Source of the DNA: an uncultured Spirochaetales bacterium
GTDB taxonomy: Bacteria; Spirochaetota; Spirochaetia; JAFGXN01
NCBI GenBank assembly: GCA_949289575.1
Contig: CASEOG010000002.1
Location: 160,254-224,253 of the forward strand
DNA length: 64,000 nt
Reading direction: 5' to 3'
Each line of letters begins with the position of its first letter. Positions within the stretch are counted from its first letter, which is position 1. Positions 16,523 through 19,783 of this stretch are shown in pieces. A program made the translations under genes and the position numbers. The notes beneath the pieces were generated by a model. The model was not told the DNA's origin. It did not search any database and saw only the letters and a program-made list of their open reading frames with translations.

Positions 16523-17854
16523 ATGGGAAAAGAAGTCACAATGGACAAGATTGTCTCTTTGTGCAAGAGACGCGGTTTTGTTTTTCAGTCATCCGAGATT
16601 TACGGCGGACTTTCGTCCGCATGGGATTACGGTCCTCTCGGTGTCGAACTGAAACGAAATATACAGAATTTCTGGTGGAAGGCGATGACCCGCATGAACG
16701 ATAATATTGTCGGGTTGGATGCGGCAATCATGATGCACCCGAAAGTATGGGAAGCCTCGGGACATGTCGAGAACTTTTCCGATCCTCTGGTCGATTGTAA
16801 AGCGTGTAAAGCCCGTTTCCGGGCCGATCAGATCGACCTGAATGCGCCCTGTCCCAATTGCGGCGGAAAAGGAACCTTTACGGAGCCGCGCGACTTTAAC
16901 CTGATGTTTTCGACGAATCTCGGGCCGGTTAAAGATGATAACAGCCGTGTTTATTTGCGACCGGAAACAGCGCAGGGAATTTTTGTCAACTTTAAGAATG
17001 TCGTTCAGTCGAGCCGTGTGAAAGTTCCCTTCGGCATAGCACAGGTCGGGAAAGCGTTTCGAAACGAAATCGTGACAAAAAACTTTATTTTCCGGACCTG
17101 CGAATTCGAACAAATGGAAATGCAGTTTTTCTGCAAACCGGGTACCGATGAAGAGTGGTTTCAGTACTGGAAAAAAGAGAGAATGGATTATTATTCGCGC
17201 CTGGGAATTCACCCCGAGCATCTGCGTTTTCATCAGCACGGCCCCGACGAACTGGCGCATTATGCGAAAGATGCATTCGATATTCAGTTTCTGTTTCCGA
17301 TGGGATGGCAGGAGCTGGAAGGAATCCATTCGCGTACCGATTTCGATTTAAGCCGTCACAACAGTTATTCCGGTAAAAACGAGCTGACCTATTTGGATCC
17401 CGATACCAATGAGCGTTATGTTCCTTACGTTATCGAGACCTCGGCCGGGTTGACGCGCAGTGTTCTGATGGTATTGAGCGATGCATACGAAGAAGAGGAA
17501 ATCGAGGCAGGTGATGTTCGGACGGTGCTGCATTTTCATCCTGCCGTTGCTCCGATAACGGCGGCGGTTTTGCCGCTTGTCAAGAAAGACGGTATCGATG
17601 AGCTGGCCCGAAAAGTGGAAAACCGTCTTCGTGAAGATTATAATATCTTTTACGATCAGAGCGGTGCGATCGGCCGCCGTTACCGCCGCATGGATGAGGT
17701 CGGAACGCCCTATTGTATCACCGTGGATTACGAATCCAAGGATGATGACTGCGTAACGCTGCGTTTCCGTGATTCCATGGAGCAGAAACGTGTTCCGATT
17801 CATTCTTTGTCTCAGGTTATCGCCGAGGAAATGAAAAATTATAAACGTGTATGA
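16523..17854 (+). CDS. glyQS: Glycine--tRNA ligase, alpha2 (homodimeric) type
   Basis: KRRGFVFQSSEIYGG, YLRPETAQGIF, GKAFRNEI, EFEQMEMQFF and QSGAIGRRYRRMDEVGTP motifs. Confidence 0.96.
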   Translation: MGKEVTMDKIVSLCKRRGFVFQSSEIYGGLSSAWDYGPLGVELKRNIQNFWWKAMTRMNDNIVGLDAAIMMHPKVWEASGHVENFSDPLVDCKACKARFRADQIDLNAPCPNCGGKGTFTEPRDFNLMFSTNLGPVKDDNSRVYLRPETAQGIFVNFKNVVQSSRVKVPFGIAQVGKAFRNEIVTKNFIFRTCEFEQMEMQFFCKPGTDEEWFQYWKKERMDYYSRLGIHPEHLRFHQHGPDELAHYAKDAFDIQFLFPMGWQELEGIHSRTDFDLSRHNSYSGKNELTYLDPDTNERYVPYVIETSAGLTRSVLMVLSDAYEEEEIEAGDVRTVLHFHPAVAPITAAVLPLVKKDGIDELARKVENRLREDYNIFYDQSGAIGRRYRRMDEVGTPYCITVDYESKDDDCVTLRFRDSMEQKRVPIHSLSQVIAEEMKNYKRV

Positions 17855-17855
17855 T

Positions 17856-17886
17856 AAAAAATCCGCCCGAACGGGCGGATTTTTTT
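17856..17886. terminator. Bidirectional intrinsic terminator between glyQS and corA
   Basis: AAAAAATCCGCCCG-aa-CGGGCGGATTTTTTT. Confidence 0.9.
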
Positions 17887-17897
17887 GCAAGGGTCTG

Positions 17898-18827
17898 TCA
17901 GAATATCTTCATCTTCTTCATGAAAAATGTCAGAACGGCAGAAACAACGGCAATTCCTCCCGTCAGAATCCAAAAGGTGTGATGAAATCCTGTCCCCGGC
18001 AGATCGACATTCATTCCGTAAATACCGGAAACGATGGAAGGGACACACAGAATAATGGTGACTCCGGTCAGGAACTTCATGGTGCGGTTCAGCTGTGTGT
18101 CGGCTAAAGTCGCCAGGGTTTCGGCGACGCCCGTAATAATGGCCGTATAGGTGCGTGCCATTTCCATAGCCTGTTCTATTTCGATAACAACATCTTCCAT
18201 TAAATCTTCGGCATCCGGATTGTCTTTAATAAAGCTGAAGCGTTTCAGCTTCAGCATAACGGATTCGTTGGTTTTAATCGAGTTGGAAAAATAAACCAAA
18301 CTTTTTTGAAGCCGCAGCATTTTAATGATTTCTTTATTCGAATAGGAACGGATCATGTCCTTTTCTATAGCGTTACTCATCTGGTTGATTCGCTTCAGGT
18401 AGTGAAGAAAATAGGCTGCATTGCGGAACAGAAGCAGCAAAAGAAATCGTGTCTGATTCTGGGTCGTAAATGCTTTAAATTTTCCGGAGCAGAAAGTCTC
18501 AATCAGGGGCAGTTTTTTGGTACAGATTGTGACAATGTAATCTTTCATTAATACAATTCCCAAAGGAATTGTCGAAAAATAGGTGTTTTCGGTACGGTCT
18601 TCAATCGGTACATCGATAATAATCAGCGTATGATTTTCTTCCAATTCGATGTGAGCTCTTTCTTCTTCGTCCAGAGCAGCCTTAATACTGTCAATATCCA
18701 GTTCGATTTGAAGTGCCAGTGTTTTGACTTCGGCGTCGGTCGGCGCAACCACATTAATCCATGTACCGGCTTCCGGTTCTGCCGTTTTCTCGATTGTACG
18801 GCCGATTGTTTTTAAGATTTCAACCAT
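17898..18827 (-). CDS. corA: CorA family magnesium transporter
   Basis: WINVVAPT, DEEER, IPLGI, two C-terminal TM helices and the signature GMN (SGIYGMNVDLP). Confidence 0.93.
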   Translation of the reverse strand: MVEILKTIGRTIEKTAEPEAGTWINVVAPTDAEVKTLALQIELDIDSIKAALDEEERAHIELEENHTLIIIDVPIEDRTENTYFSTIPLGIVLMKDYIVTICTKKLPLIETFCSGKFKAFTTQNQTRFLLLLLFRNAAYFLHYLKRINQMSNAIEKDMIRSYSNKEIIKMLRLQKSLVYFSNSIKTNESVMLKLKRFSFIKDNPDAEDLMEDVVIEIEQAMEMARTYTAIITGVAETLATLADTQLNRTMKFLTGVTIILCVPSIVSGIYGMNVDLPGTGFHHTFWILTGGIAVVSAVLTFFMKKMKIF

Positions 18828-18971
18828 TTTTGCCTCCTGAAAGCACTCCGGAGGCAGGAACTCCCCCGGCTAAATATTTGTAGAAAAGAAACAGCGCTTA
18901 CTGCCGGGGGAATCATCCATAATTTTACTCCTGTTCGGATTTACTTTATCATAATTTACCGGTGTAGACAA
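18828..18971 (-). promoter_or_regulatory. corA promoter and structured 5' leader (candidate translational attenuator)
   Basis: TTGTCT (18966-18971), 17 bp spacer, TGa-TAAAGT (18943-18948). Perfect 9-bp stem 18903-18911/18862-18870. Perfect 7-bp stem 18850-18856/18831-18837 covering the corA SD. Confidence 0.7.
18870..18920 (-). CDS. Putative corA leader peptide MDDSPGSKRCFFSTNI (16 aa)
   Basis: ATG at 18920 has an AGGAG SD (18928-18932) 7 nt upstream; TAG at 18870-18872. The ORF lies inside alternative RNA stems. Confidence 0.7.
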   Translation of the reverse strand: MDDSPGSKRCFFSTNI

Positions 18972-18982
18972 TAAAAACCGGA

Positions 18983-19783
18983 TTATTTTTCGTTGCTTTC
19001 CGACTGTTCTTTTGCCGTAAAGGTCATAACAAGTGCTTTCTCGGCATTTCTGAAAGAAAGTGTATTTCCCGACAGCGAGTATTCGACCGCTTCCGCCAGA
19101 AGCGAATTGAATCGGTCTGCCAGAACCATGAACTCTTCGGGGCCGGCCATCATTGTTGTTCCCATTTGGGAAAAGGAAATCGTATTTTTTTCGCCGATGT
19201 TGTAGGAGCCGAAATAACGGTTGACTCCGTTCGAGCCCGCAACGCTGTTGTCCTTTCCGAAAGAAATATCTGCCGTAAAGCCTTCGGGGACGGAGACCAT
19301 TGCCGTCCCGTCATTCAGCGACAGAAGAGTCCATTCCGTGTTTTCCAGTTTATTTAAAGCAAAAACAAACAAAACTCTGTCGTTTTTATCTTTTATCGTC
19401 AGTTTGTCCTTTTTAATCCGGAAATGGTCCGATTGAATCAATGTCGTAAAGAAGTGCTGTTCCAGTTTCATCATGTCGGGAGAAGCGGCTTTCCGTGTCG
19501 CGCCGATATTGCTGAAAGTCAGTTTATTTTCATCGATTTTCACAAGAGAAAAGAAATTATTGACACCGGCTGTGCCTGTAGCCTGTGTTTCCGTAAAAGA
19601 GACGGTAATCGGAGAATACATATCGGTATCTTTCACCATTTCCTCGGGAGAAATCAGGTTCGATGAGTCTTCGGTAATGATTTCCGTCAGTTTCCAAGAT
19701 GCGTCCGTGATGTCGGCATCGTCCGACGAACAGCCGGAAAAGGCAAATAAACCCGCTACAGACAATAAAAGAAATCTTTTCAT
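18983..19783 (-). CDS. Lipoprotein with two META (HslJ-like) domains
   Basis: Lipobox FAFSGC. Two repeats of W.L..l...G.(A/N)GVN.(F/Y)F......F...G.T.(K/M)A. Confidence 0.9.
   Translation of the reverse strand: MKRFLLLSVAGLFAFSGCSSDDADITDASWKLTEIITEDSSNLISPEEMVKDTDMYSPITVSFTETQATGTAGVNNFFSLVKIDENKLTFSNIGATRKAASPDMMKLEQHFFTTLIQSDHFRIKKDKLTIKDKNDRVLFVFALNKLENTEWTLLSLNDGTAMVSVPEGFTADISFGKDNSVAGSNGVNRYFGSYNIGEKNTISFSQMGTTMMAGPEEFMVLADRFNSLLAEAVEYSLSGNTLSFRNAEKALVMTFTAKEQSESNEK

Follow-up and report, generated by a model that had tools for sequence, protein, structure and literature searches.

The DNA analyzed here (hereafter the window) is a 64,000-nucleotide (nt) stretch from the 1.95 Mb genome of an uncultured gut spirochaete (G000). 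We propose that the leader of its corA gene (about 18940-18828, minus strand) is, on balance probably, a translated leader-peptide switch that sets the amount of CorA, with Mg2+ as the likely input. Briefly, the leader carries a short upstream open reading frame (uORF) and four RNA segments. In the resting RNA, segment 1 would pair with segment 2 and segment 3 with segment 4, burying the Shine-Dalgarno sequence (SD) of corA. A ribosome lingering on the first nine or so leader codons would cover segment 1, leaving segment 2 free to compete for segment 3, so that a 30S subunit could open the corA SD at far lower cost. A ribosome that reaches the uORF stop codon, or no ribosome at all, would leave the SD shut. 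Because the conserved N-terminus of the leader peptide resembles early di-acidic and proline motifs, low Mg2+ would be expected to hold or recycle ribosomes on the early codons, raising CorA synthesis. We infer the translation of the uORF, the pausing at its motif, Mg2+ as the signal and the direction of the response.

Four pairing segments and a leader peptide upstream of corA

The regulated gene, corA (17898-18827, minus strand), encodes a 309 amino acid CorA-family Mg2+ channel with a YGMN motif (Pfam PF01544, E = 1.2e-50) and is separated by a 155-nt spacer on the minus strand from a META-domain lipoprotein gene (19783-18983). An SD in this spacer (AGGAG, 18928-18932, minus strand) lies 7 nt before an ATG at 18920-18918. 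As read from the sequence, this ATG opens a uORF of 16 codons plus UAG (18870-18920, minus strand; ATG GAT GAT TCC CCC GGC AGT AAG CGC TGT TTC TTT TCT ACA AAT ATT TAG) that encodes MDDSPGSKRCFFSTNI. The uORF sits 93 nt upstream of corA, and its conserved part, M-D-D-S-P-G-S (18920-18900, minus strand), ends in a serine codon AGU at 18902-18900.

All four segments lie on the same strand. Segment 1, the 5' arm of helix 1:2 in minimum free energy (MFE) folds (AUUCCCCCGGC, 18903-18913), covers leader codons 3-6, and its core UCCCCCGGC (18911-18903) pairs perfectly over 9 base pairs (bp) with the core of segment 2, GCCGGGGGA (18870-18862), whose first base is the last base of the uORF stop codon. 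From the MFE fold and pair counts, the 3' arm of helix 1:2 extends over GCCGGGGGAGU (18860-18870) and segment 3, the anti-SD, over UGCCUCCGG (18848-18856). The UGCCUCC part of segment 3 (18856-18850) is complementary to segment 4, GGAGGCA (18831-18837), which contains the corA SD GGAGG (18837-18833), 5 nt before the corA ATG at 18827. Alternatively, CCGGGGG of segment 2 (18869-18863) can pair with CCUCCGG (18854-18848) over 7 bp, including one G-U, to form helix 2:3. Both the MFE and the centroid fold of 18945-18815 consist of exactly 1:2 plus 3:4, and helix 1:2 has 11 bp with a further 3 bp taking it to the G of the uORF AUG. The energy of this fold (-41.8 kcal/mol, z = -2.27, equally stable in 5 of 200 shuffles) is only moderately unusual by itself, and we regard the comparative evidence below as the decisive argument against chance.

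An earlier note on this DNA had described the uORF, both SDs, the four segments and the alternative pairing, and all of its coordinates are correct on a minus-strand reading; the pairing of 1:2 and 3:4 that it claimed is exactly what the MFE fold returns. It had also held that the leader is not an M-box and called for an Rfam scan. A covariance scan of 18500-19300 (cmscan, E <= 10) found no Mg-related family and no M-box match, and no family at the corA leader. The scan did return an ALIL pseudoknot at 19059-19164 on the plus strand, antisense within the META-domain gene, which we dismissed as chance (18.4 bits vs a cut-off of 50, E = 0.022). We also considered whether helix 1:2 might be a terminator and rejected this as a general explanation, since a U-run follows segment 2 in G002 and in no other relative.

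To compare leaders within the genus, we assembled six: that of G000, those of three same-genus species (G001, G002 and G003; CorA 87-94% identical) and those of two species, P2 and P5, from Logan contigs (loci L134-L137 and L138-L139; both species belong to the same genus as the window). A metagenome scan for closer relatives found none. The uORF and all four segments, whose absence from orthologous leaders would, according to the earlier note, have told against it, are kept in five of the six (G000, G002, G003, G001 and P5). The four relatives among these share the SD-ATG, the open frame and the N-terminus MD[DE][ST]PG, with the peptides MDDSPGSKCDNFFRYF, MDETPGSRRRLNFFHFI, MDETPGSCRCLKFFSFH and MDDSPGNQCIYNISQHESGASFVSA, each closed by a stop codon. 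Within the genus the peptide is conserved only over its first six or seven residues and has diverged beyond them, as have the flanks and the 32-nt loop that separates segment 1 from segment 2; segments 1-4 are nearly invariant. Across five relatives, 91% of helix cells are paired for 1:2 plus 3:4 and 97% for 2:3, as compared with 42-71% when the partners are slid by 1-3 columns. Helix 3:4 is 100% paired in these five, and seven core pairs of helix 1:2 are kept in every one of them. Segment 2, which is non-coding sequence, is conserved in all six relatives, including the uORF-less P2.

At its other end corA converges with the glycyl-tRNA synthetase gene, and the G+C-rich hairpin between the two (about 17850-17890), which has A-runs and T-runs on its flanks (AAAAAAATCCGCCCGTTCGGGCGGATTTTTTAT), looks like a bidirectional intrinsic terminator.

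Ribosome position and the cost of opening the corA start site

We modeled the effect of leader translation on corA by ribosome-footprint-constrained folding and took as our readout the opening cost, defined as the energy that a 30S subunit pays to open the region from SD to AUG, which we judged more informative than the equilibrium probability that the SD is unpaired. With no ribosome on the leader, the opening cost in the five genus leaders was 6.7-13.4 kcal/mol. Placing the P site at codons 1-9 gave 4-9 kcal/mol at most positions (up to 10 in G002), and placing it at codons 10-14 gave 11-13 kcal/mol, with a sharp step between codons 9 and 10 in every genus member. With a ribosome at codons 1-9, the corA start site becomes cheaper to open by as much as ~7 kcal/mol. 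Beyond the genus, early occupancy was cheaper than late occupancy in 35 of 42 Spirochaetia leaders (mean -1.6 kcal/mol, Wilcoxon p = 7e-6), and in 24 of 29 once near-duplicates were removed (p = 6e-5). The corresponding value for leaders shuffled upstream of the SD was +0.2 kcal/mol (Mann-Whitney p = 1.4e-7).

Leaders with diverged stems provided a second kind of evidence. Within Ornithospirochaeta the SD hairpins vary (UCACGUCC/GGGGCGUGA, UUCAUGCCU/AGGCAUGAA, GGUCUCUG/CAGGGGCC, CGCCUUCC/GGAAGGACG and others), and a stretch near the end of the uORF changes together with the hairpin (GGAUGUGA, GUGUAUGA, CCAGAG, GGAAGGC and others). In a swap test, the leaders' own region 2 fitted their own anti-SD better than a foreign region 2 did (mean z = -0.89, p = 1e-4), with z below -1 in 23 of 45 leaders and negative in all 13 leaders of the Ornithospirochaeta clade. 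This p value rests on a constrained definition of the SD hairpin; automatic segment finding, which misplaced the anti-SD arm, gave p = 0.28. In G000 the constrained definition picked the inner part of the hairpin, and the z of G000 itself is not meaningful. The potential for helix 1:2 is also present in Ornithospirochaeta, where a complement to the motif-coding bases occurs immediately upstream of region 2 (mean z = -1.5, p = 0.0017). Together, these results support the 1:2, 2:3 and 3:4 logic for the genus of G000 and for at least one other, independent clade.

A leader-peptide family at Mg2+ transporter genes

Having found the peptide N-terminus conserved within the genus, we surveyed the class. 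Among 401 genomes, 103 had a corA orthologue, and ~500 nt of upstream sequence was taken for 98 of these, giving 102 loci. We then counted uORFs of 6-70 amino acids fitting ^M.{0,6}[DEP]G{1,2}S. The forward strand contained 51 such uORFs, 47 of them with an SD, which lies 5-10 nt before the ATG. The reverse strand of the same loci contained two, neither with an SD, and 20 shuffles of the loci produced 1-7, of which 0-1 had an SD. The conservation of the peptide that the earlier note had proposed to look for is thus found both in the four relatives that keep the uORF and in these 47 of 102 Spirochaetia loci. The 47 SD-preceded uORFs share the motif [DE][DEP]G(G)S, as in MNDSDGSKRP, MSDPDGGSRR, MSTVDDGGSITPLP, MDDGSYPLPEN, MDSDPGSKRI and MDTEPGSRSY, and near variants occur at ~16 further loci (MPDSDGHS, MDPDPDSKR, MSTTDDSAS and others). 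Conservation is limited to the first 5-9 residues; the length ranges from 12 to 45 amino acids and the C-terminal sequence varies even within the genus of G000. Synonymous variation affects the codons for Asp (GAC/GAT), Glu, Pro and Gly (all four in use), which shows that the peptide is under selection.

Within G000 as a whole, only 13 of the 1810 small open reading frames (ORFs) preceded by an SD fit the motif, and a Mg2+ transporter gene lies downstream only of the one at corA. Other motif-like small ORFs of G000 (METDPS, MELDPLFG..., MDFGPA) lie inside or before unrelated ORFs, and we set them aside. A 26-nt pattern of one subtype gave 14 matches in 185,579 species genomes, all of them in Spirochaetales gut metagenome-assembled genomes (MAGs) such as Candidatus Ornithospirochaeta, and all 86-107 nt before a ~340 amino acid ORF with a GMN motif. 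We therefore delimited the family as an SD and ATG, followed within nine codons by [DE][DEP]G(G)S or M[DE]x[SD]P, at 90-290 nt (mostly 90-210) upstream of a Mg2+ transporter gene. The G000 leader belongs to it by its SD-ATG, its MDDSPGS, its position and its AGU serine. On the public contigs examined, the uORFs (12-45 codons) are not called as genes, and the leaders are not in Rfam: the related spirochaete leaders, scanned at the gathering threshold, matched no family. A single case outside the two main phyla is a small ORF, MDDTPYQKKLNY, 95 nt before corA in a Chlorobiota MAG (L034, CorA 35% identical), which has no clear SD; the peptide family may extend to Chlorobiota.

The nearest homologues of the G000 CorA are not spirochaetal (~38% identity) but clostridial, from Peptostreptococcaceae (~45%). 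At clostridial corA loci, 66 of 80 have an SD-preceded uORF fitting ^M[DE]..P, ~150 nt upstream. The Peptostreptococcaceae leaders (L144-L199; Romboutsia, Clostridioides, Paraclostridium, Terrisporobacter, Intestinibacter and Peptacetobacter) have no M-box and carry uORFs of the form MD.[SIY]P..., for example MDHSPLR, MDFSPWR, MDTSPLRR, MDSIPLR and MDASPL. In Ruminiclostridium and related Bacillota (L143, L201, L204, L205, L208, L213 and L214), an SD-preceded MDCDPDS[RSN] uORF lies between an M-box (RF00380, 148-156 bits) and corA, so that a leader of this type would hold two different candidate Mg2+ sensors in series.

A second transporter family is involved as well. Several of 30 spirochaete mgtE loci (L265, L247, L252, L242, L246, L248 and L261) carry a similar uORF 150-210 nt upstream, followed by an SD-sequestering hairpin. 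Their peptides include MSDSDGSQRS (again with GGC AGT), MDTDPLSS, MSDTDSSS and a clade with MSEPSRP..[ED]DP[LF]LC; neither the mgtE leaders nor any other spirochaete leader tested matched Rfam or the M-box. The uORF family thus occurs with Mg2+ transporter genes of two unrelated families, corA and mgtE, and alongside M-box riboswitches. MgtE (PF01769) was not found in G000 and is also absent from most genomes that have this corA, and this CorA is therefore probably the main Mg2+ importer in these genomes. Across genomes G000-G150 the two transporters have a roughly complementary distribution: MgtE is missing from G000, its genus and many others with this CorA subfamily, and many MgtE genomes had no close match to this CorA.

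One codon of the motif is close to invariant (window 18900-18902, minus strand; leaders L036-L133, L144-L223 and L265). The motif serine is AGT in 45 of the 47 Spirochaetia leaders, with TCG AGT in the other two, and in the clostridial MDxSP leaders all 25 of these serines are AGT. By comparison, AGT accounts for 22 of the 144 non-motif serines of the same uORFs and for 9.5% of serine codons in G000. The one tRNA-Ser(GCU) of G000 has to read AGU by G-U wobble, and the codons right after it in the leaders are often rare and A/U-rich (AUA, AGA, UUA). The AGU may mark a slow, Mg2+-sensitive decoding step. It may instead have a role at the RNA level: UAGUU pairs with AACUA in some leaders, and segment 3 of G000 contains a CUGCC with which GGCAG could pair.

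Known systems and alternative explanations

To our knowledge, Mg2+ sensing by ribosomes on a leader peptide is established only for enterobacterial mgtL and its relatives mgtP and corL. Searching the accessible literature, we found no description of such a leader family in spirochaetes or clostridia, in keeping with the earlier note, which knew of none in spirochaetes. E. coli ribosomes pause at or dissociate from early di-acidic motifs, adjacent or one residue apart and aided by proline, and at low Mg2+ the EPDP motif of MgtL causes the ribosome drop-off that switches mgtA on (PMC11282234). Like mgtL-mgtA (MgtL, MEPDPTPLPRRR...), the G000 leader places a short ORF with N-terminal acidic and proline residues before a Mg2+ importer gene, and alternative RNA pairings set by ribosome position are proposed for it; many of its relatives also carry P-L-P after the acidic motif (MDDGSYPLPE...), as MgtL does. 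It differs in its predicted readout, which is SD sequestration and thus translational whereas mgtL acts through Rho-dependent termination, in its motif (D-D/E-x-P-G-S, or D-D-G-G-S in relatives, with the invariant AGU), in its phyla (Spirochaetota and Bacillota) and in having no sequence or structure match to any Rfam family.

Two other Mg2+-responsive leaders are relevant. In E. coli and Salmonella, the corA leader contains a uORF, corL; the more efficiently corL is translated, the lower the expression of corA, and corL responds to intracellular Mg2+ (PMC11552253). The corL peptide and RNA are nonetheless unrelated to the G000 leader: corL has a UUG start and few acidic or proline residues, and acts via Rho and two long-range structures. 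The M-box (ykoK, RF00380) likewise occupies 5' leaders of Mg2+ transporter genes, among them the homologous Ruminiclostridium corA, but it is a 170-nt metal-binding aptamer that does not need translation; none is present at the G000 leader, while the clostridial matches are strong. In mycobacteria, a conserved uORF of unknown role with an invariant proline, rv1805A, lies downstream of an M-box (PMC12810186), and the Ruminiclostridium order of M-box, MDCDPDS uORF and corA repeats this tandem layout. It is the only published parallel that we found for the tandem leader, although rv1805A has another peptide and other downstream genes (pe20/ppe31/mgtC), and no peptide-driven SD switch has been proposed for it. 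By sequence and structure, then, the G000 leader falls outside the mgtL, corL and M-box families.

In its predicted geometry the leader matches ermC. In the ermC model, a ribosome stalled on segment 1 frees segment 2 to pair with segment 3. As in ermC, an SD-preceded leader ORF overlaps segment 1 (codons 3-6 here), the SD of the regulated gene lies within 3:4, and the predicted folds contain both the ground state of 1:2 plus 3:4 and the mutually exclusive 2:3. Unlike ermC, where a macrolide in the exit tunnel acts with a longer nascent chain, the candidate stall here falls within the first 5-9 residues and the regulated gene encodes a Mg2+ channel. These analogies support a hybrid that couples an MgtL-type sensor to an ermC-type readout, and the leader is probably a ribosome-based Mg2+ sensor akin to MgtL of Salmonella. 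In its main lines this supports the interpretation given in the earlier note, as far as comparison of sequences can.

Several observations weigh against this reading. The promoter is the weakest part of the leader description: the hexamers that the earlier note pointed to are present (TTGTCT at 18971-18966, a 17-nt spacer and TAAAGT at 18948-18943; 18943-18971, minus strand) and would form a possible sigma-70-type promoter, but they match only 8 of 12 consensus positions and were therefore missed by our promoter scan, whose threshold was 9 of 12. Comparable hexamers occur at the same place in G002 (TTGTAC-17-TAATAT) and P5 (TTGAAT-17-TACAAT) and are absent from the corresponding place in G003 and G001. 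At equilibrium, helix 3:4 is more stable than 2:3, and the switch therefore needs kinetics or the binding energy of the 30S subunit. The SD unpaired probability is 0.00 in all five genus leaders with no ribosome and merely 0.03-0.37 with a 27-nt ribosome mask on segment 1, and the same measure with ribosome masks showed no general effect across 42 leaders. The early-ribosome logic of the earlier note agrees with the opening cost, which in all five genus members is lower at codons 1-9 than at codons 10-14; as modeled, the switch is a lowering of the opening barrier and not an equilibrium flip. The stem covariation that the earlier note sought gave no statistical signal within the genus, since almost nothing changes in the stems (two wobble changes and a single double change from C-G to U-A), and it is the swap test between clades that speaks for it.

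Other such points concern the peptide and the relatives. With only one proline and two acidic residues, the G000 motif is weaker than that of MgtL, and if low Mg2+ caused drop-off instead of stalling, segment 1 would be released again. P2 (L134-L137) keeps segments 2-4 but has lost the MDDSPGS uORF, having in its place a hairpin and an SD-less ORF that starts MLPVPPN. P5 has lost its uORF stop at segment 2, and the frame runs for 25 codons to a TAA 4 nt before the corA SD, a layout that would imply the opposite logic, with full translation opening the SD. The Peptostreptococcaceae platform also differs from the spirochaete one: AUCACUU, a stretch within the uORF, pairs with the uORF's own SD, and the last uORF codons and stop (UAUCUUAA) pair with the corA start region (AUGAUAAGAUA).

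The P5 layout raises the possibility of positive coupling, in which the SD hairpin is off by default, complete translation of the uORF opens it by helicase action or re-initiation, and the early motif is only a brake. Here the P5 opening cost falls to 0-1 kcal/mol at the last codons, in one Treponema-like clade the uORF and the start of corA overlap, the end of the Peptostreptococcaceae uORF pairs with the corA start region as described above, and even in G000 a ribosome at the last two codons reduces the cost slightly (8 vs 11 kcal/mol). In G000, G002, G003 and G001, however, the uORF stop lies 39-43 nt from the corA ATG, so that a terminating ribosome stays short of segment 3, and the gap is 27-83 nt in most leaders; with early occupancy beating late in most of the leaders modeled, we consider positive coupling unlikely. 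A different signal acting on the same switch is improbable to about the same degree. Charged tRNA (Asp, Pro, Gly or Ser), translation stress, ribosome-targeting compounds, or a proline or osmotic state as proposed for the Pro codons of mgtL could each act there. The invariant minor AGU and the frequent rare codons after it look like a sensor of decoding speed, and in Ruminiclostridium the M-box upstream already senses Mg2+, so the uORF might add a second signal. Against this, the family accompanies corA and mgtE, with no member seen ahead of any other gene in G000, and it has neither the single-codon runs of classical amino-acid attenuators nor a link to amino-acid genes.

The first descriptions of the mgtA leader were of an RNA that responds to Mg2+ (discussed in PMC11552253), and the G+C-rich helices of the G000 leader might similarly respond to Mg2+ or temperature directly, the uORF being passive or accessory. 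The retention of segments 2-4 without the uORF in P2 fits this idea. We nevertheless hold it to be very unlikely, given that no Rfam family matches, that the peptide motif is conserved across clades behind a strong SD with synonymous codon variation while the RNA sequences differ, and that higher Mg2+ would stabilise 1:2 and 3:4 alike, with no obvious selectivity. That the uORF product is a functional small protein, for instance a CorA regulator like MgtR or MgtS, with the hairpins as ordinary mRNA structure, is scarcely credible despite its hydrophobic C-terminus (CFFSTNI) and the discussion of a functional peptide for the conserved uORF downstream of the mycobacterial M-box (PMC12810186), since the conserved first 5-9 residues are too short for folding or membrane spanning and length and C-terminus vary within the genus.

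The leader-peptide switch therefore remains the reading that we favor, and the peptide family suggests a broader, more tentative extension of it. The di-acidic and Gly-Ser motif with its AGU might mark a specific Mg2+-sensitive step of the ribosome, shared across phyla, of which Spirochaetota and Bacillota are covered here, as a sensor for Mg2+ importers (corA, mgtE and perhaps mgtA), a proposal that we rate as possible and somewhat doubtful. The step could be decoding or peptide-bond formation on an acidic nascent chain of 4-7 residues, and in some lineages the sensor would be layered onto M-box riboswitches. If the switch operates as proposed, ribosome-based Mg2+ sensing would be much more widespread than the enterobacterial cases, would work through a purely translational, ermC-like readout, and would occur in organisms with no recognisable primary Mg2+ importer other than this CorA. 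The family spans many Spirochaetia and gut Clostridia, including Clostridioides, Romboutsia and Ruminiclostridium, at both corA and mgtE, and it matters for annotation too, as its leader ORFs are missing from gene calls on the contigs examined and its leaders from Rfam. Its dozens of natural variants, AGU codon included, would offer material for learning how a very short nascent chain makes a ribosome sensitive to Mg2+.

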